Assembly: GCA_965228895.1 (NCBI GenBank) | Contig: OZ245842.1 | Coordinates: 2,240,001 to 2,304,000, forward strand | Reading direction: 5' to 3' | Length of the DNA stretch: 64,000 nucleotides | Source of the DNA: Alphaproteobacteria bacterium | GTDB taxonomy: Bacteria > Pseudomonadota > Alphaproteobacteria > SP197 | Program-made: the position numbers and the translations under genes | Shown: one piece after another, positions 32,995 to 60,594 of the stretch | Position numbering within the stretch: the stretch's first letter is position 1 | How the letters are laid out: the number at the start of each line of letters is the position of its first letter | Notes under the pieces: model-generated | The model's database searches: none | What the model was told of the DNA's origin: nothing | The model's input: the letters and a program-made list of their open reading frames with translations, nothing else

Positions 32995-33620
32995 GACAGA
33001 CCGAACTTGGCGGCGACGTCGGCGAAGATCAACGCCGCCACATCATCCTCGCTGCCCGTCGCGTCGATCAGGCGGCAGCGCTCGGGATGGTCGGCGACGA
33101 TGTCCTGGAACGCCTGGCGCAGGCGTTCGTGATAGGCCGGCCCCATGCGCTCGTAGCGATCGGCGCCGCCACGCTCGGCCGCACGCGCCAAGCCGATCTC
33201 GACGGGCAGGTCCAAAACCAGGGTCAGGTCTGGTTTCAGGTCGCCGACAGCGATGGCGTAGAGCCGGTCAACCACGTCGCGCCCGGCACCTTGAACGATG
33301 CCCTGGTAGGCCATGGTTGAATCGGCGAAGCGGTCGCATATGACACAGGCGCCGCGCTCAAGAGCGGGCCGGATCGTCACCTCCAGGTGATCGCGCCGTG
33401 CCGCAAAATGAAGCAGTGTTTCGGTGATCGCATCCCAGCGATCGACGTCGCCATCGACCAGAATGGCGCGGATGGCTTCGGCGCCCGGCGCGCCGCCGGG
33501 CTCGCGTGTCGTGACAATTTCGTCGGTCTGGCCGCTCAGCGCCTCGGCGAGCCGGCGCACTTGTGTCGACTTGCCAGCCCCCTCGCCGCCCTCAAGCGTG
33601 ATAAAGCGGCCGGCAATCAC
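32991..33620 (-). CDS. tmk: Thymidylate kinase
   Basis: 'FITLEGGEGAGKSTQ', 'TREPGG', 'CDRFADSTMAYQG'. Confidence 0.98.
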   Translation of the reverse strand: MIAGRFITLEGGEGAGKSTQVRRLAEALSGQTDEIVTTREPGGAPGAEAIRAILVDGDVDRWDAITETLLHFAARRDHLEVTIRPALERGACVICDRFADSTMAYQGIVQGAGRDVVDRLYAIAVGDLKPDLTLVLDLPVEIGLARAAERGGADRYERMGPAYHERLRQAFQDIVADHPERCRLIDATGSEDDVAALIFADVAAKFGLS

Positions 33621-34756
33621 GTTCCCGACGGGCCAAACACCAGATAGCTGATCGCCGCGCCCAGGCGGCTGAACATGGAGAGTTCGCCGACATCGGCGCC
33701 GGCGACAAGCGGCACCTCAACCGTCTCCATGTTGGGGGCTTCCAGCACCAGCATGGCAACCGGCGTTCCCTTGACGATGGGTGCCGGGATCGGACCTTCG
33801 AAGACGGCCTTGACGGTCATCTCGCGGCGCGCCTCGCGCGACATCGTGATGACCAGATCCTCTTCGATGACCAGTGGCACGGTGTCTTCGTCGCCCAGCC
33901 AAACCTCGGCATCTGTCACCGTTTCACCGGCCCCCAGAAGCGCATAGGCATCGAACTCACGAAAACCCCATTCGATCAGGCGTTCGGCCTCGCGGGCGCG
34001 CTCTTGGGAACTGTCGACGCCGTTGATCACAAGCACCAGGCGGCGACCATCACGCTCTGCGGAGGCCGTCAGCCCATAGCCCGCGGCTTCCGTATGACCG
34101 GTCTTCAGACCATCGGCGCCGGAGGCCGTATAGAGCAGCGGGTTGCGGTTGCTCTGTTCGATATCGCTGAACGTGAACGTCGTCTCGGCGTAGTACGGAT
34201 AGTACTCGGGAAAGTCCTCGATCGTCCTGATGGCCAGCGTGGCGAGGTCGCGCACCGTCGTGACGTGCTCTGGGTCCGGCCAGCCCGACGCGTTGCGGAA
34301 GTTGGAGTTCGTCATGCCCATTGCGTGGGCCTGATCGGTCATGTCGATGGCGAACGCTTCTTCCGATCCCGAGATGCCTTCGGCCAGAACGATGGTGGCG
34401 TCGTTGCCGGACTGGACGACGACGCCGCGGACCAGATCCTCGACCATGACGCGGGTATCGACCTCGACGAACATCTTTGAACCGCCCATGCGCCAAGCCT
34501 TCTCGCTGACCGGCAAGGTCGCGTCCAGGCTCAGGCCGCCCTCGGCGAGTTTTTTGAAGACCAGATACATCGTCATCATCTTGGTCATCGATGACGGATA
34601 GGTCGTTTCGTCCGCATTCTTCTGAAACAGCACCGTCCCGGTCGACATGTCGATCAGGATTGCCTCGCGGGCCGAGGTTTCGTTAGCGCGCGCCGGTAGA
34701 CCGGCAGCAAGGGCCGTAAGGACGACAATCAGGGTGGCAAGGACACGACGGGACAT
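33617..34756 (-). CDS. dacA: D-alanyl-D-alanine carboxypeptidase (PBP5/6 family)
   Basis: Signal peptide, SxxK 'PSSMTK', SxN 'QSGNDA', KTG 'GLKTGHT'. Confidence 0.95.
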   Translation of the reverse strand: MSRRVLATLIVVLTALAAGLPARANETSAREAILIDMSTGTVLFQKNADETTYPSSMTKMMTMYLVFKKLAEGGLSLDATLPVSEKAWRMGGSKMFVEVDTRVMVEDLVRGVVVQSGNDATIVLAEGISGSEEAFAIDMTDQAHAMGMTNSNFRNASGWPDPEHVTTVRDLATLAIRTIEDFPEYYPYYAETTFTFSDIEQSNRNPLLYTASGADGLKTGHTEAAGYGLTASAERDGRRLVLVINGVDSSQERAREAERLIEWGFREFDAYALLGAGETVTDAEVWLGDEDTVPLVIEEDLVITMSREARREMTVKAVFEGPIPAPIVKGTPVAMLVLEAPNMETVEVPLVAGADVGELSMFSRLGAAISYLVFGPSGT

Positions 34757-34828
34757 GGCGGGGTCACTATCCGTGGACGATGAAAGCTGCCGACGCTTAG
34801 CGGCCCAGTTGGGCAGAATTGCGCCAGT

Positions 34829-35644
34829 TTAGTCGATGACGATACGCGCCTCTTGATAGCCGGCGGCCATGACACGGTAGCGCATGTCGCCCGCTTGATC
34901 GAGATCGGCATAGGGTCCCAGCCGCACGCGGTAGAACGGTAGGCCGTTGGCGACCACACGGTAGATCTGAACGTGGTCCAGCATAGCGAGCTGCCGGCCG
35001 ACCTTTTGGGCGTTATCGGCTTCGGTGAAGGCGCCGATCTGGACGTAGATGGCGCGGTCAGGCTCCTCGGAGATGAGGTCGATTGCGGCGGTTGTCACCT
35101 CAGGTTCAGGCGGCGCTTCCGGGTCCTGTGCCGCAAAGGCAGTGCCGGTATCCGGGTCGACGACCTGGACCCTCACCTGGGCCGTCCCCGCGCGCTCAAA
35201 GCCCAAGAGCTGGGCCGATCGGCGCGAGACGTCGATGATCCGGCCATAAGCGAAAGGCCCACGGTCGTTCACCTTCAGCACCAGCGAGCGGCCGTTATCC
35301 AGATTGGTGACCCGGACATAGACCGGCATCGGCAAGGTCTTGTGGGCCGCCGTCAACAGGTTCATGTCGTAGACCTCGCCGTTGGCCGTGCGCCTGCCGT
35401 GGAACGGCTCGCCATACCAGGAGGCTATGCCGACCTCGTCGTAGTACGGGTCTTCGGCGGGGTAGTACCAAGCGCCGTTGATCTGATAGGGATTGCCGAC
35501 CTTGTAGCTGCCGCCGGTATCGCTGTCGCGCTGCGCTTCCTTGCTCAGCGTCGCCAAAAGCTCTGTTTCGGCACATCCCGCAACGATCGCGGCGACAAGA
35601 AACGACGAGAAAACAAGGACAAAACCGCGATATACGCCAAACAC
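34829..35644 (-). CDS. rlpA: Septal ring lytic transglycosylase RlpA (lipoprotein with SPOR domain)
   Basis: Lipobox 'VAGC', 'GIASWYG..FHG..TANGE', 'AAHKTLP', 'VNDRGPF', C-terminal SPOR 'YVQIGAF...YRVRLGP'. Confidence 0.95.
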   Translation of the reverse strand: MFGVYRGFVLVFSSFLVAAIVAGCAETELLATLSKEAQRDSDTGGSYKVGNPYQINGAWYYPAEDPYYDEVGIASWYGEPFHGRRTANGEVYDMNLLTAAHKTLPMPVYVRVTNLDNGRSLVLKVNDRGPFAYGRIIDVSRRSAQLLGFERAGTAQVRVQVVDPDTGTAFAAQDPEAPPEPEVTTAAIDLISEEPDRAIYVQIGAFTEADNAQKVGRQLAMLDHVQIYRVVANGLPFYRVRLGPYADLDQAGDMRYRVMAAGYQEARIVID

Positions 35645-35680
35645 GCCAAGCCTGCCCGCTAGATATAGTGGTGGCGAACT

Positions 35681-36661
35681 CTAACGGCTGACGATCTCAT
35701 CGGCAAGACGCACGACTGACATGGCAAAATAGTCCGACCGGTTCCAGCGCAAGATGACCCGATAATTGCTGAAAACCAGATAGGCCGGACCGCCGTCGCC
35801 GGCCGGCATGGCAAGCGTTGTCGGTTCGTCGGCCGCGACAGCCGGTGGCGCTGCGATAAAGGTCACGCCCTCGTCCAGCCAGGCCTGCAGGGGACGTGGC
35901 GAATCGTGGCCCGAACGAGAGGCATCCATGCCGGCGGGCAACGTTACCGCTGCACCCCAAGGCTCATCCAACTCCCAGCCGTAGCTCGAGAGATAATTGG
36001 ATGCGGACGCAAACACGTCACCGCGGGTGGTCCAAATGTCGCGCCTGCCGTCCTTATCCCAGTCGACGGCGTAACCCATGAAACTGGATGGCATAAACTG
36101 GCTTTGGCCCATGGCGCCAGCCCATGAGCCAACCATTTTGTCTTTTGTTATATGGCCTTCGTCCAAAATCTTGAGAGCATGCATCAGCTCACGCCGAAAG
36201 AAGTCGCTGCGCCTTGGATCCCAGGCCAGGGTCGCAAGCGCGGCGATCACGTCGAAACCGCCGGTATAGGTGCCGAACCGAGTTTCATGCCCCCACAGCG
36301 CGATGACGGCTTCGGGATCAACGCCATAGACGTCGCTTACCGAGATGAGCAGCGGCAGATGTTCGTCGTAGTTACGCCGCGCCTCGGCAATCAGTGCCGA
36401 CGGCATGCGGCTCGCCATGTATTCGGCGAACGTGACCGTGCCTTCCGGCTGGCGCCGATCCAGCTCGATCACCCGATCGATGGGCTGAATGTCGTTGAGG
36501 GCCGCGTCGAGCGTTGCCTGGCTGACACCTTGGGCGGACGCTTCAGCGCGAACACCGTCCACGAATGTTGTCCAGTCCGGTTGCGTCTGAGCCTCTACCG
36601 GCACGACGAACAACAGCAGGACGGTTAACTGAATGAGGACGCTTTGGGCTTTTGGGCGCAT
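35681..36661 (-). CDS. mltB: Lytic murein transglycosylase (MltB family)
   Basis: 'ALWGHETRFG', 'GSWAGAMGQSQFMPSS', EF-hand-like 'DWDKDGRRD', 'NYRVILRWNRS'. ATG at 36661. Confidence 0.92.
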   Translation of the reverse strand: MRPKAQSVLIQLTVLLLFVVPVEAQTQPDWTTFVDGVRAEASAQGVSQATLDAALNDIQPIDRVIELDRRQPEGTVTFAEYMASRMPSALIAEARRNYDEHLPLLISVSDVYGVDPEAVIALWGHETRFGTYTGGFDVIAALATLAWDPRRSDFFRRELMHALKILDEGHITKDKMVGSWAGAMGQSQFMPSSFMGYAVDWDKDGRRDIWTTRGDVFASASNYLSSYGWELDEPWGAAVTLPAGMDASRSGHDSPRPLQAWLDEGVTFIAAPPAVAADEPTTLAMPAGDGGPAYLVFSNYRVILRWNRSDYFAMSVVRLADEIVSR

Positions 36662-36755
36662 GGATGGACACCGTCTCCCTTTTGTTCGTGTGTGTGGCAC
36701 AGCCCGGCCAATCGTGCAATGGTCGCAGCAGCCAAAACGGCCGCGGCCGAAAGCC

Positions 36756-37019
36756 ATGCGCATCGATAAAAAGGACGTCAAACGTTTCGTCGTTGTTGCG
36801 GCGGGGCTCTATGTGGCCGTTGGCCTCGTCGCGCTGATTGCGCCGGCTGTTGCCTTTCCGCTCGTGATTGCGTTGACGGCGTTGCTGGCACTGGTGGTGG
36901 TGCTCGTGCTGTTCCTACGTGCCTGGCATTGGTTCATCAGCGAAAGCTTCAGCCTGATTGAAGATCGCTCGCGCGAATTGCGAGAACGGCCGCATCAACA
37001 ACGCGCCAAGCGGCGATAG
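36756..37019 (+). CDS. Hypothetical small membrane protein (2 TM)
   Basis: ORF 'MRIDKKDVKRF...' with two long hydrophobic segments; fills the gap between mltB and the next gene. Confidence 0.55.
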   Translation: MRIDKKDVKRFVVVAAGLYVAVGLVALIAPAVAFPLVIALTALLALVVVLVLFLRAWHWFISESFSLIEDRSRELRERPHQQRAKRR

Positions 37020-37057: not shown

Positions 37058-37315
37058 CTATCCCTTTGGCTCGTCGTCCTCGCCTGTGTCCATGCCGCCA
37101 CCGGCACGATCGTCGTGGCCATGGTGGTGGCTGTAATAGGAGAGCCGCATCAGGCCAACGCCCAGGCCGGTGACGAAAATGACGCACAGAATAATCGCGA
37201 TCACACCGTGGATGCCCATCTCTACATCGTCGAGCGCGAGCCAGACATCGATGGCGTAGATCAAGGTCCCGCTGAGGATGATCACAAGCGCGAGAGCGAC
37301 AAGAGCGGTCTTCAT
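37058..37315 (-). CDS. Small two-TM membrane protein with His/Asp-rich tail
   Basis: Two hydrophobic helices ('MGIHGVIAIILCVIF..GLGVGLMRLSYYS') followed by 'HHHGHDD'. Confidence 0.7.
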   Translation of the reverse strand: MKTALVALALVIILSGTLIYAIDVWLALDDVEMGIHGVIAIILCVIFVTGLGVGLMRLSYYSHHHGHDDRAGGGMDTGEDDEPKG

Positions 37316-37402
37316 TCGTCTGCCATTCCGGTTCGGCCAGGATGGGTCGTGACGGGTTCACCAGAATCGTAGTGAGGACCGTCACAGATCGCGCGGGTGC
37401 GC

Positions 37403-37430
37403 TTGATTCCTGTGGGCAAGGTCTTAACAT
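37403..37430 (+). promoter_or_regulatory. Candidate sigma70 promoter for the riboswitch-parA transcript
   Basis: TTGATT (37403-37408), 16-nt spacer, TAACAT (37425-37430). A GANTC site overlaps the -35 element. Confidence 0.4.
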
Positions 37431-37475
37431 TGCTTTCGTCGGCTGGAAACGCCGATATGGGCAGCCACTAACGGC

Positions 37476-37571
37476 TCCCAGATAAAGGCAAACCGGTGGA
37501 AACATCGGGACGCAAAGCCACCGGCCTTCACCTCGGTCAACGAGGGCAAGGTAGCGGGGTTACCAAAGGGA
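37476..37571 (+). ncRNA. Cyclic di-GMP-I (GEMM-I) riboswitch
   Basis: GGCAAACCGGTG-GAAA-CATCGGGACGCAAAGCCACCGGCCT...AGGTAGCGGGGTTACC matches the Vc2-type core. P2 has a GNRA loop, P3 a distal hairpin CCTCG/CGAGG, and P1 is TCCC (37476-79) pairing with GGGA (37568-71). Confidence 0.95.
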
Positions 37572-37580
37572 AGTCGTACT

Positions 37581-37733
37581 ATGTGTTGTGACAAGACAAA
37601 GCCGTCTGCTGCCATCTGGAAGACCTCCGGTCTCCCCACAACCGATTTCGCCTCCCCTTGTGCCGCCGTCTTGGCGACACCGGGTTTTCTGCGCTGTCAA
37701 TCCGCTGTCGCCACGCGGGGTACTTCATGCTGA
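37581..37733 (+). CDS. Putative 50-aa leader uORF downstream of the riboswitch
   Basis: ATG 37581 follows AAAGGGAAG and reads MCCDKTKPSAAIWKTSGLPTTDFASPCAAVLATPGFLRCQSAVATRGTSC. Its TGA (37731-33) lies between the two parA ATGs (37727, 37739). Not in the ORF track (too short). Confidence 0.45.
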   Translation: MCCDKTKPSAAIWKTSGLPTTDFASPCAAVLATPGFLRCQSAVATRGTSC

Positions 37734-38497
37734 GCTCGATGCGTGTCCTCGTTGTCGCCTCGCAAAAAGGCGGCTCCGGCAAGACGACCTTGTCCGGTCA
37801 TCTTGGTGTCGAGGCCGAGCGCGCGGGCCACGGTCCGGTCGCGCTGATCGATACGGATCCGCAGGGCAGCCTGGCTCAGTGGTGGAACGCTCGTGAAGCG
37901 GAGACCCCGGCCTTCGTCCAGTCGAGCGGCCAGACCCTGCGCGACGATTTGATGGCCCTTAGAGAACAGGGTTTCAAACTGGTCGTCATCGACACGCCGC
38001 CCGCCGCGACGCGCGAGATTTCCGAGGTCGCCGCGTTCGCCGATCTGGTCATTCTGCCGACGCGCCCGAGCCCTCACGACTTGCGCGCCGTCGCCTCGAC
38101 GATCGAGATTTTGGAGCAGCGCGGCAAGGCCATGGTCTTCGTGCTGAACTCCGCAACGGCACGTGCGCGCATCACTGGCGAGGCCGCCATTGCGCTGTCG
38201 CAGCACGGCACGGTCGCGCCGGTCACAGTTCACCATCGCGTCAATTTCGCCTCCAGCATGATCGACGGCCGGACGGTCGCCGAGATCGACGAGGAGAGCG
38301 CGTCCGCCAAGGAGGTCTCCGAACTCTGGAGTTATCTGGCTGATCGCATCAGCCGCAAACACATGGTCGCCCTGCCCGGCGGCGTCGAGAAGGTCGAACA
38401 GCCGACACCGGCGGTCGCCCATCCTGTCGCGCCGGAAGGCCTGAGGCCGAGCCAGCCTTTTGGCCGGCGCGGACGCGACGAAATCCATCTGACTTGA
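37727..38497 (+). CDS. ParA/Soj/MinD-family ATPase (no N-terminal HTH; type Ib-like)
   Basis: Deviant Walker A 'QKGGSGKTT', 'IDTDPQGSL', Walker B 'VIDTPP', 'PTRPSPHDL'. Start is 37727 or 37739. Confidence 0.92.
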   Translation: MLSSMRVLVVASQKGGSGKTTLSGHLGVEAERAGHGPVALIDTDPQGSLAQWWNAREAETPAFVQSSGQTLRDDLMALREQGFKLVVIDTPPAATREISEVAAFADLVILPTRPSPHDLRAVASTIEILEQRGKAMVFVLNSATARARITGEAAIALSQHGTVAPVTVHHRVNFASSMIDGRTVAEIDEESASAKEVSELWSYLADRISRKHMVALPGGVEKVEQPTPAVAHPVAPEGLRPSQPFGRRGRDEIHLT

Positions 38498-38516
38498 TCA
38501 AGGACGATCGGGCGTC

Positions 38517-38963
38517 ATGAGCAAAGGCAAGGTAGCGGTTCTCCATAGCGGCCTGTTGGCACGCAAGGGTGAAGCACGTCCGATGGCGGTCTACGCCGCG
38601 CCGCCGGTCACAGCGCCCGAGCCGGTCGCGCCGCCGCCTGCCCCCGCGCCTGCCGCAGCTTATCCACAGCCCGCCAAGTCCGGCCACAGCACGGACACAA
38701 TAGCGCCGCAGGTTGCCGCGTCATGTCCGAACATCAAGCTGCCGCCTGAGTTCGCGCGCGATGGCAAGAAAGCCAAATCAGGCCCGCGCACCGAACTCCA
38801 CGCGCGGCTGGCAAACACGTCGCATAAGCGATTGAAGATTGCATCGGCCCGCCTTGGCCGGTCGCAGCAGGAGATTGTCTCCGCCGCGATCGACGCCTAC
38901 CTCGATTACATCGAGGGCGATGTGCTGAACGGTTGCCGATGCATGAGGAACGCCCGGGGCTAG
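38517..38963 (+). CDS. ParA partner protein: flexible N-terminus, Pro/Ala linker, C-terminal ribbon-helix-helix-like domain
   Basis: N-terminal 'SGLLARKGEARPM'; C-terminal 'RTELHARLANTSHKRLKIASARLGRSQQEIVSAAIDAYL' has a beta-helix-helix pattern; 19 nt downstream of parA. Confidence 0.75.
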   Translation: MSKGKVAVLHSGLLARKGEARPMAVYAAPPVTAPEPVAPPPAPAPAAAYPQPAKSGHSTDTIAPQVAASCPNIKLPPEFARDGKKAKSGPRTELHARLANTSHKRLKIASARLGRSQQEIVSAAIDAYLDYIEGDVLNGCRCMRNARG

Positions 38964-38996
38964 GGACTTACGCGCTCGACCCCTTGCCCTGGCGTC

Positions 38997-39041
38997 GCGG
39001 GCCGGTGAGATTCCAAGCATCTCATCGGCCCGCAACTTTTT
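38997..39041 (+). terminator. Rho-independent terminator of the parA operon
   Basis: Stem GCGGGCCGGTGAGA / TCTCATCGGCCCGC followed by AACTTTTT, between convergent genes. Confidence 0.7.
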
Positions 39042-39053
39042 CGGACCGATGAA

Positions 39054-39944
39054 CTAGGCCGCGTGCTCCACGATGAACGCGCCGGCGCGCGCCAATGCCG
39101 CGTTGGCTTCCGGCACTTCTGGCGCCAGATGATGCCAGACATGCGGGGCGCCCTCTTCGATCTCCAGAACCGCTGTGCTGCCGGCCGCTGTCATTCCGTC
39201 GGCGAGTGAGCGCGCATCGTCCAGCAGCAGTTCGGTATCGCCGACCTGGATTAGGATCGGCGGTAAGCCTGAAAGATCGCCGTGATGGGGCGCCACATAG
39301 GGATGGCGAAGGTTGTCGCCGTTCAGATACGTCTCAACAAAAACCTCGAGTTCGCCGACGCTCAGGAAGGCGTCACGGTCGGGATCGCCGGCGCGCCACG
39401 TGCCCTCGCCTTCCATGTCGCACCACGGCGATATCGCGACACCACATGCGGGCAAAGGCAGTCCTTCGTCGCGCAAGCGCAGCATGACGGCGAACACCAG
39501 CCCGCCGCCCGCCGAATCGCCGGCAAAGGCGATCCGGCGGCTGTCGCCCATCTCCTGCACCAGGGCACGATAGGCTTCGACACAGTCATCGATGGCGGCG
39601 GGAAACAGATGCTCCGGCGCCAGCCGATACTCCGGAAAGAAGAGCCGGCAACCCGCCGCCTTTGCAAGTCTCGTGACGATCATGATGTGGCTCTTCGTCG
39701 ATCCCATCGCGTAGCCGCCACCATGAAAATAGAGGATGGCGCGATCGGGGTCGGCGTTCGGCGGGTCGAATTGCCATCCCGGCACGCCGCCCAGCGCCGT
39801 CCGGTTTGCGGTCACGCTGTCGTCGCCGGGAAACTCATCGCCCAGCTCGTCGTAGGACACCCGGCGCTCGGCCATGGTGGCGTCTTCAGGTAGCACAGCC
39901 TCGGCCAGAATCTTCTTGTAACGCTCAAGCTCAGGGCTGGGCAT
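39054..39944 (-). CDS. HSL-family (abhydrolase_3) esterase/lipase
   Basis: 'YFHGGGY', 'YRLAPEH.FPAA', 'GDSAGGGL', 'PHVWH'. Confidence 0.93.
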   Translation of the reverse strand: MPSPELERYKKILAEAVLPEDATMAERRVSYDELGDEFPGDDSVTANRTALGGVPGWQFDPPNADPDRAILYFHGGGYAMGSTKSHIMIVTRLAKAAGCRLFFPEYRLAPEHLFPAAIDDCVEAYRALVQEMGDSRRIAFAGDSAGGGLVFAVMLRLRDEGLPLPACGVAISPWCDMEGEGTWRAGDPDRDAFLSVGELEVFVETYLNGDNLRHPYVAPHHGDLSGLPPILIQVGDTELLLDDARSLADGMTAAGSTAVLEIEEGAPHVWHHLAPEVPEANAALARAGAFIVEHAA

Positions 39945-39946
39945 GG

Positions 39947-40846
39947 CTAGGCTCCCGTGTGTCGTTGAACAAAGATACCAATGCGGTCGATGGCCGCCAT
40001 GGCTTCCGGCAGCAACGGCACCGCGTGATGCCAGACGTGAAAGGCGCCCTCTTCGATCTCCAGCGTCGCGTCGACACCGGCGGCCTCGGCGTGATCGGCA
40101 AGCCTCGTGGCGTCACTGAGCAGGACTTCCAGGGTGCCGACTTGGATCAGGAGCGGCGGCAGGCCAGTAAGGTCGCCGAAGATGGGTGATGCCAGAGGAT
40201 CGCGCTGGTCAGCGCCGTTCATGTAGTCGGTGGCGAAGCTGATAAGTGCGGGCGCGTCACAAATGGGATCCGAAGCCGGATCGGCGTCACGCCAGGCGCC
40301 CCGTCCATCGAGATCGGTCCACGGAGAAATTGGAATGGCACAGGCCGGCTGTGGCAAACCTTCGTCGCGCAAGGCGAGTAGCAGGGCGACGGTCAGCCCG
40401 CCGCCGGCGGAATCGCCGGATACGGCAGTGCTCTTGGCGTCATACCCTTCATCGAGCAGCCAACGGTAGGCCGCGACCGCATCCTCGACGGCCGTCGGAA
40501 AGGGATGTTCGGGAGCAAGACGATAATCGAGGGCAAGCACCTTTGCCTTTGCTGCGCCGGACAGACGCGACGTCAGGCCGATGTGGGTCGATACGGAGCC
40601 AGAGACGTAGCCGCCGCCGTGCAGGTAGAGGAGCACACTGTCATCCCGGGCGGTGCTGGCGGTCTGCCATTGTGCGGGTACGCCGCCGGCCACCGTGTCC
40701 ACCGTTCTGACGCCTTTGGCGATGGGGAACATCCGGCCGAACTCTTCGTATTGGTCCCGGATCTCCGCTAGTGGCCGATCGGGCGGCGCCTTGGCCTGCT
40801 CATCGTAGAGCGCCGCGATGAACCGTTCCATCTGCTTGCTGACCAA
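39947..40846 (-). CDS. HSL-family (abhydrolase_3) esterase/lipase, tandem paralog
   Basis: 'YLHGGGY', 'DYRLAPEHPFP', 'GDSAGGGL', 'FHVWH'. Confidence 0.93.
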   Translation of the reverse strand: MVSKQMERFIAALYDEQAKAPPDRPLAEIRDQYEEFGRMFPIAKGVRTVDTVAGGVPAQWQTASTARDDSVLLYLHGGGYVSGSVSTHIGLTSRLSGAAKAKVLALDYRLAPEHPFPTAVEDAVAAYRWLLDEGYDAKSTAVSGDSAGGGLTVALLLALRDEGLPQPACAIPISPWTDLDGRGAWRDADPASDPICDAPALISFATDYMNGADQRDPLASPIFGDLTGLPPLLIQVGTLEVLLSDATRLADHAEAAGVDATLEIEEGAFHVWHHAVPLLPEAMAAIDRIGIFVQRHTGA

Positions 40847-60504: not shown

Positions 60505-60594
60505 GGACGGGTGGCCGAGTGGTTGAAGGCAGCGGTCTTGAAAACCGCCAGGCGTGCAAGCGTCTCGTGGGTTCGAATCCCACCCCGTCCGCCA
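60505..60594 (+). tRNA. tRNA-Ser (anticodon TGA)
   Basis: Acceptor stem GGACGGG/CCCGTCC plus GCCA, D-loop AGTGGTTGAA, anticodon arm GCGGT-CTTGAAA-ACCGC, long variable arm, T-loop GTTCGAATC; 90 nt. Confidence 0.98.

Follow-up and report, generated by a model that had tools for sequence, protein, structure and literature searches.

A c-di-GMP-I aptamer with a candidate ribosome site in its P1 helix precedes a ParA/ribbon-helix-helix operon in an alphaproteobacterium

The DNA analyzed here is a stretch of 64,000 nucleotides (nt) of an alphaproteobacterial genome (contig OZ245842.1, positions 2,240,001 to 2,304,000), referred to below as the window. It contains a two-gene operon whose leader carries an aptamer of the class I riboswitches for cyclic diguanylate (c-di-GMP-I, also known as GEMM-I). 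The aptamer (37477–37568, plus strand) is followed by parA (37727–38497), which encodes a ParA-type ATPase of 256 amino acids (aa), by the gene of a 148-aa partner (38517–38963), and by a strong intrinsic terminator (15-bp stem, 38997–39033, then a T-run up to 39041), all on the plus strand. A previous sequence-only reading of this locus had placed a near-canonical GEMM-I aptamer at 37476–37571, ahead of an operon for ParA and a ribbon-helix-helix (RHH) protein that closes with an intrinsic terminator. The aptamer, both genes with the same strand and order, and the terminator were all recovered in the present analysis.

The Rfam family RF01051, to which the aptamer had been assigned, matched the genome at 37477–37567 with 77.8 bits, far above its cut-off of 35, with an E-value of 2.9e-15 and over model positions 1–87. 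In a cmscan analysis, the sole Rfam riboswitch match of the whole window lies at 37478–37568 on the plus strand. There, the c-di-GMP-I-GGC family (RF03167) reaches 68.5 bits, where 59 would suffice as the cut-off, with an E-value of 4.3e-14, and clan competition selects RF03167 as the name of the match by its better E-value. We take this name to denote the contact nucleotides of the family, in which G replaces the intercalating A47. In the cmscan alignment, the base after GACGC is G in the RF03167 consensus (GACGCGAA) and A in the window (GACGCAAA), and the match line is blank at this position. This A-for-G exchange at the place of A47 is the only mismatch of the window to the conserved core of the GGC consensus, and none of 36 related aptamers has a G there. 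On account of its A at this position, the window aptamer is assigned to the canonical G20/A47/C92 type, and not to the GGC variant.

The ligand contacts of the Vc2 RNA are G20, the intercalating adenine A47, and C92, as given in PMC4744006. The window has G, A and C at these places, within GGCAAAC, GACGCAAAGCC and UUACC, respectively, which agrees with the alignment to Vc2 proposed earlier and corresponds to the c-di-GMP type. The Vc2 numbering was transferred to the window through the model alignment and what we take to be the Vc2 positions. For comparison, a model was built from six of the 36 related aptamers, and all 36 were aligned to it. All 36 have G at the G20 place, and the contact nucleotides are kept throughout, bar one aptamer with GTAAAG around A47. 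The fold is likewise preserved, with 89.9% of the cells paired and 14 pairs that show changes on both sides, a result that none of 500 shuffles equalled; when the pairing partners were slid as a control, pairing dropped to 31–49%. The contact nucleotides support c-di-GMP as the ligand, and the aptamer is very probably a genuine c-di-GMP riboswitch that controls the parA operon.

The 3' end of the aptamer overlaps a candidate ribosome site. A Shine-Dalgarno (SD)-like element, GGGAAG, spans positions 37568–37573 of the plus strand, and its GGGA (37568–37571) constitutes the 3' strand of an extended P1 helix through pairing with UCCC at 37476–37479, as indicated by both covariation and folding. 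The same design is found in all 36 aptamers, which end in an SD-like CC(G/A)AA(G/A)GGAG whose GGGA or GGAG pairs with a (U/C)CC(U/C) stretch just 5' of the core P1. Within this extension, 72.7% of the cells are paired and five pairs have changed on both sides. Inspection by eye placed a start codon within a few bases of one position in 34 of the 36, each opening a reading frame of at least 22 codons; the two exceptions, L020 and L101, have no start codon at the fixed position after the aptamer. The SD at the aptamer end, together with the fixed start codon, implies that the class is built as a translational device in this lineage, and control at translation initiation, via the SD in P1, appears likely.

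Two arrangements connect the aptamer to parA. In the first (type A), the ATG of parA lies approximately 7–12 nt past the aptamer (CCGAAAGGAGAACACC-ATG), as found at loci L018, L029, L034, L094, L095, L097 and L102/L114, and also at L137 and L141. The second (type B), to which the window belongs, has a leader of 79–169 nt. In nine of ten type-B loci, the first start codon past the SD, 8–15 nt from the aptamer end, opens an open reading frame (ORF) of 22–55 codons, and in nine of the ten long leaders the stop of this ORF falls at –2 or +4 of the parA ATG (TGATG or ATGNTGA/ATGTTAA). The 159-nt leader of the window contains such a translated-looking ORF and is, therefore, not a plain untranslated region. 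Its leader ORF of 50 codons (37581–37733, plus strand) starts with the ATG at 37581, 7 nt past GGGAAG, and ends with the TGA at 37731–37733, which overlaps the parA start (ATGCTGA). The encoded peptides show no relationship from one genus to another, and within genus g4 they are alike only in part; the first 22 residues are identical in the three genomes of the genus of the window.

The ribosome-binding site (RBS) of parA is itself predicted to be masked. According to the minimum free energy (MFE) structure and to pairing probabilities, a long hairpin within the leader ORF (37660–37723, plus strand), which includes the inverted repeat I1 (37672–37686 and 37699–37713), buries the region of the RBS, whose probability of being unpaired is 0.21 compared with a leader mean of 0.41. 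The RBS is mostly paired in each of the seven type-B leaders tested (probability unpaired of 0.12–0.37 versus leader means of 0.37–0.43), and in several of them it pairs with a CUCCU element. As read from the sequence, the arrangement of leader ORF and parA is a classic design of translational coupling, and we moderately favor the coupling of the two. The search for an intrinsic terminator between the aptamer and parA returned only a weak 5-bp stem at 37670–37684; with this stem as the sole candidate, an intrinsic-terminator platform was rejected as the main mechanism.

Two further hairpins are predicted 5' of the aptamer. One occupies the predicted transcript start (37438–37456, plus strand) and has predicted equivalents in other type-B leaders. 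The other, termed P0 (37459–37479, plus strand), pairs a pseudo-SD, GGGCAGCC, with GGCUCCC, the UCCC of which is at once the anti-SD and the 5' strand of P1. P0 is present in the unconstrained MFE structure of the window leader. Across ten type-B leaders it has 95.2% of its cells paired, variable loops and two compensatory pairs, and its probability of being paired is 0.86–0.95 versus 0.4–0.5 in shuffles, an excess confined to the type-B parA leaders. For the RNA comprising 37438–37600, the structure that contains P0 and the one that pairs the SD in P1 are isoenergetic before the energy of ligand binding is added (–60.5 and –60.4 kcal/mol, respectively), which fits a switch in which c-di-GMP would tip the balance towards P1 and hide the SD.

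The association between this riboswitch and ParA recurs across genomes. The source genome has three c-di-GMP-I aptamers, located ahead of the parA of the window, of a paralog (parA2) that is 56% identical to the window ParA and has an aptamer of its own, and of a gene for a 99-aa membrane protein. In the same family, the riboswitch occurs in 16 of 33 genomes (15 of 32 besides the source) and this ParA in 13 of 33. The aptamer lies directly upstream of 16 of the 20 ParA copies in these 13 genomes, in all five genera, and the 17 genomes of genus g4 that lack the riboswitch also lack this ParA. A broader sample of the class, with one genome per family (151 genomes, source genome included), contains the riboswitch in 12 genomes; the riboswitch class is thus rare in Alphaproteobacteria. 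Among the ten other families having it, four have it before a ParA homolog (G097, G130, G153 and G166). In the Alphaproteobacteria sampled, no other target of the c-di-GMP-I class recurs as often as ParA. The recurrence in paralogs, within the family and in other families indicates that the link is a selected arrangement and not a product of chance.

Several of the loci in this comparison have particular layouts. The parA2 locus (L002, 3311118–3312151) has a leader ORF of 35 codons with an ATGTTGA overlap and no partner gene; the next gene is convergent. In G014 (999684–1000426; region of L127 and L103), the aptamer is still found upstream of a parA pseudogene interrupted by one TGA and two TAG codons, and G031 retains the aptamer, the leader and the partner without ParA. 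The loci L095, L097 and L102/L114, from genera g3 and g5, display a tandem arrangement consisting of an aptamer, a gene for a membrane protein of 113–114 aa, a second aptamer, parA and the partner gene.

Conservation extends upstream of the aptamer. A palindrome of the form AGTGA-N6-TCACA (AGTGAGGACCGTCACA, 37371–37386), revealed by the alignment of the regions preceding the aptamers, fits the CRP-type consensus TGTGA-N6-TCACA, and its center precedes the predicted start of transcription by approximately 60 nt. A GTG-N8-YAC palindrome is found 77–106 nt upstream of 26 of the 36 aptamers (26 of the 29 from the family), whichever gene follows; besides that of the window, the aptamers of L002, L003 and 23 other loci are preceded by it. 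Among the ParA loci devoid of the riboswitch, it was detected at 2 of 74 with a loose pattern and at 0 of 74 with a strict one. A role as the operator of the RHH partner was considered and is unlikely, since unrelated genes led by a riboswitch have the palindrome upstream, and ParA loci without the riboswitch lack it. GTGA-N6-TCAC sites are not enriched genome-wide (79 sites versus about 65 expected), and the genome encodes several helix-turn-helix (HTH) proteins of the CRP/FNR type. The conservation of the palindrome points to a cassette of promoter and riboswitch that would be governed by a factor of the CRP/FNR type.

A putative promoter (37403–37431, plus strand) is placed by cross-genus alignment only, with a –35 element TTGATT at 37403–37408, a spacer of 17 nt and a –10 element AACATT at 37426–37431. 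When the 170-nt regions that precede nine parA aptamers are aligned, the TTG of the –35 element and a CAnATT-like –10 element line up in the nine leaders, which represent three genera. A strict sigma-70 scan of 37200–39200 found no promoter, and no promoter-like site was found between the aptamer and parA. The conserved upstream region supports, without proving, a transcription start located 5' of the aptamer.

The product of parA is a deviant Walker-A ATPase similar to ParF (type Ib), as judged from Pfam (AAA_31/CbiA/MipZ), NCBIfam and solved-structure matches. It starts at an ATG (MLSSMRV), with an N-terminus as in its relatives. The profile NF041546 (ParA family partition ATPase) matches over positions 1–202 of 203 with 169.2 bits, below its cut-off of 180, and the closest solved relative is TP228 ParF (E-value 3.3e-15). 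The ATPase core encompasses residues 5–205 of a small protein without an N-terminal DNA-binding domain. The deviant Walker A motif SQKGGSGKTT (residues 12–21) is invariant in 22 aligned homologs, as is the FGRR (residues 245–248; 38462–38473) that ends the variable C-terminal tail. In contrast to plasmid-borne type Ib systems, the locus is chromosomal, in a single 5.5-Mb contig and among cell-wall genes. A search for a centromere-like repeat array in 37200–37760 found nothing beyond two-copy matches at chance level. The ParA/RHH module occurs widely among Alphaproteobacteria, with 547 relatives confirmed among the candidates and a partner in 74 of the best 80.

The partner consists of an N-terminal LLARKG peptide, a disordered linker and a C-terminal RHH domain. 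No Pfam family matches it. The top matches of a profile of 30 partner sequences are exclusively RHH proteins, namely SvtR (1.3e-3) and ParG (9e-3), followed by PutA and omega. Residues 90–135 are predicted by AlphaFold2 with a per-residue confidence (pLDDT) of 91–97 as a strand-helix-helix unit with helices at 100–113 and 117–133, and the ten best Foldseek matches are all RHH proteins, including PutA (TMt 0.92), CopG and ParG; the E-values are at least 0.07 in every case owing to the small size of the domain. An L-x2-R-K-G-x-A-x-P peptide is invariant at the N-terminus, and it recurs in the gene after ParA at 74 of the 80 homologous loci. In a model of the complex, partner residues 12–26 are placed on ParA residues 41–81. 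The model scores 0.61 and the highest of its three controls 0.35; this mark was attained by 58 of the 80 solved complexes and by 2 of the 110 mismatched pairs. The runs share at least 82% of the contacts, with a partner pLDDT of at least 54. The pass of this model may reflect likeness to solved complexes of the ParF–ParG type. The partners encoded at L095, L097 and L114 retain the LLARKG-type N-terminus, and by eye an HTH-looking end (GLS..TF.R.V..G.LP) replaces the RHH domain.

These elements can be assembled into a mechanism in which c-di-GMP represses the ParA module. Transcription would start near 37438, from the promoter with the CRP-type site. At low c-di-GMP, the anti-SD UCCC would be held in P0, which would leave the SD GGGAAG free, and ribosomes would read the 50-codon leader ORF, thereby opening the hairpin over the parA ribosome site. 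They would stop at the TGA that overlaps the parA ATG and re-initiate, so that ParA and its partner are made. At high c-di-GMP, the ligand would lock P1 and bury the SD; the leader ORF would go unread, and parA would stay closed, become exposed to Rho, or both. The genome has three GGDEF and two EAL matches and can, therefore, both make and break c-di-GMP. We give the explanation as a whole, with its riboswitch, SD in P1, leader-ORF coupling and OFF response, somewhat better than even chances, and the OFF direction of the switch is held with a similar, modest degree of confidence. By this mechanism, c-di-GMP probably sets the amount of a ParA spatial organizer that is made.

Several observations weigh against this proposal. 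Among the best 80 homologous ParA loci of the species collection, of which the first 20 were scanned with cmscan and all 80 with a purpose-built model, the aptamer is present at five and absent from 75. The riboswitch is thus an add-on to an older ParA/RHH module that usually lacks it, and it has joined the module repeatedly or spread with it. The SD of the window, GGGAAG, is weaker than the GGGAG or AGGAG of its relatives. The covariation of P0 is small, as 19 of 500 shuffles are as good, and P0 was rejected as a general feature of the aptamers of the family (mean 0.58 versus 0.47, Wilcoxon p of 0.026, among related sequences). The folding programs model neither the ligand nor tertiary contacts. 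The probability of an open frame by chance is 0.18–0.72 per leader, which is not improbable for any single one, and the product for seven non-identical leaders, 0.0016, is overstated because the genomes are kin. Two loci from other lineages, L020 and L139, have no leader ORF and a strong SD of their own before parA, and hence a single mechanism does not account for every locus. An SD of its own is also retained by parA in most type-B leaders, which would permit a certain amount of translation without the leader ORF.

Part of this evidence favors a different output of a genuine aptamer, in which Rho terminates transcription of the untranslated leader without any reinitiation, or in which the switch is of the ON type. 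No good intrinsic terminator exists in the leader besides the weak 5-bp stem, the 159-nt leader would be naked when untranslated, and L020 and L139 point to other platforms on the same aptamer. On the other hand, the location of the SD within P1 in all 36 aptamers is most simply explained by ligand-caused occlusion, and nine of ten long leaders preserve the stop/start overlaps (ATGNTGA, TGATG). Rho action and lost coupling are, moreover, compatible and have the same direction of effect. We regard this alternative as unlikely. It is quite improbable that the short leader ORF is a micropeptide gene and the sole target of the riboswitch, with parA expressed from a start or ribosome site of its own. 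The recognizable parA SD in most type-B leaders and the identity of the first 22 leader-peptide residues in the three genomes of the genus would be in line with such a gene, but the aptamer abuts parA without a leader ORF in seven loci, the peptides vary from 22 to 55 codons and are unrelated between genera, a predicted hairpin within the leader ORF covers the parA SD, and the interval from aptamer to parA has no promoter-like site that we could find.

The nature of the ligand and the integrity of the aptamer were weighed in the same manner. A ligand other than c-di-GMP, either 3',3'-cyclic GMP-AMP (cGAMP) or that of the GGC variant, would accord with the better E-value of RF03167 in the clan competition; nevertheless, RF01051 gives the larger bit score and exceeds its cut-off by a far wider margin, and the window has A where RF03167 has G. 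GEMM-I RNAs selective for cGAMP reportedly carry A at the G20 place, which is G in 36 of 36 related aptamers, and the genome has GGDEF and EAL genes, all of which makes another ligand very improbable. The absence of the aptamer from 75 of 80 homologous loci and its persistence before the G014 pseudogene with three stops could be taken as signs of a decaying relic without a regulatory role. Decay is hard to reconcile with the full-length match to the model, the compensatory changes across 36 copies, and the preservation of the contact nucleotides, the SD and the start spacing, and we consider it extremely improbable.

Other genes surround the operon. A divergent gene for an 85-aa membrane protein (37058–37315, minus strand) shares its control region and is conserved upstream of riboswitch-parA loci in three genera; the protein has a His-rich, acidic tail, and the gene is also found beside a riboswitch without ParA (L100). 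Further upstream, a cell-wall cluster (33617–36781, minus strand) comprises genes for a PBP5-type carboxypeptidase, an RlpA-like protein with DPBB and SPOR domains, and an MltB-like lytic transglycosylase (SLT_2), the SPOR gene being located 2 kb from the parA locus. Two adjoining Abhydrolase_3 paralogs of 296 and 299 aa (39054–40846, minus strand) are convergent to the operon. A tRNA with a long variable arm lies at 60505–60591 on the plus strand (RF00005, 61.3 bits).

The third riboswitch of the genome (1548220–1548298; L003 1193–1492, minus strand) directly precedes the gene of the 99-aa membrane protein. Homologs of this protein follow aptamers in L104, L105, L107, L110 and L112, with a partial match in L103, and L106 has a similar membrane ORF of 92 aa that was not matched by tblastn. 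The other riboswitch-led ORFs of the family encode membrane proteins of 113–114 aa and soluble proteins of 89–93 aa, all unannotated. Pfam searches returned no family for the 85-, 99-, 113- and 89-aa proteins, and inspection by eye of the riboswitch-led membrane proteins found no LLARKG peptide.

c-di-GMP riboswitches are known mainly from positions before motility, adhesion and secretion genes. The recurrent link to a ParA-type spatial organizer represents a new output class for them. The earlier reading knew of no described system of this kind, and our literature searches on c-di-GMP riboswitches with ParA or partitioning, which left supplementary tables aside, likewise gave nothing relevant. 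The locus holds a member of an established riboswitch class that stands out by its new, recurrent target, by a platform of its own (SD in P1, 5' competing hairpin, probably coupled leader ORF) and by a shared CRP-type promoter cassette. For a genome of 5.5 Mb, 3 GGDEF, 2 EAL and 3 PilZ matches and three riboswitches make up a very small c-di-GMP network; since two of the three riboswitches are on parA paralogs, the ParA module would be a major output in this genome. The riboswitch also offers a condition, low versus high c-di-GMP, under which a phenotype of the ParA/RHH module can be sought, and the leader would be a compact natural example of riboswitch control relayed via an upstream ORF.

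On a more speculative level, the CRP-type promoter, the aptamer and the ribosome site may form, in this family, a portable cassette that sets up a small regulon, made up of the ParA/RHH pair and several unannotated membrane proteins of 92–114 aa, in which the membrane proteins are tethers or cargo of ParA. We put this forward as a tentative idea that is rather unlikely to hold in full. If it were true, c-di-GMP, acting via RNA, and a second nucleotide-type signal, acting via a CRP-like factor, would decide where or whether the nucleoid-bound ParA machine joins the envelope, and c-di-GMP would have a spatial output without a protein effector.

A comparison with known systems places the locus among several precedents. 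The module resembles TP228 ParF/ParG (PDB codes 4dzz, 5u1g and 1p94) in its small deviant Walker-A ParA and in its downstream RHH protein with an apparently flexible N-terminal tail. By contrast, it is chromosomal, conserved across Alphaproteobacteria and below the NF041546 cut-off, has the FGRR tail in ParA and the LLARKG peptide in the partner, and is not accompanied by a detectable centromere-like repeat array in the region searched. With RF03167, the aptamer shares the CCGAAG 3' end of the model consensus, and it differs by the A, instead of G, after GACGC.

The closest parallel for the proposed control is the B12 riboswitch of Mycobacterium tuberculosis ppe2, described by Kipkorir et al. 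2024 (PMC11260477) as a translational OFF switch that controls a short upstream ORF, the translation of which is needed for that of the downstream gene via termination-reinitiation. The window is similar in that the SD of the leader ORF would be occluded in P1 and the leader stop overlaps the start of the main gene; the ligand, the aptamer class and the phylum differ, and the coupling in the window is deduced from its sequence alone. With Vibrio cholerae Vc2 and Vc1 (RF01051), the window aptamer has in common the three-helix fold, the GAAA loop, the nucleotides G20/A47/C92 and the position in a 5' leader. It departs from them in its host class, Alphaproteobacteria, and in its ParA/RHH target, and it combines an SD in the 3' strand of P1, followed at a constant spacing by a start codon, with a predicted competing helix P0 on the 5' side of the aptamer and an interposed leader ORF that is apparently coupled to parA.

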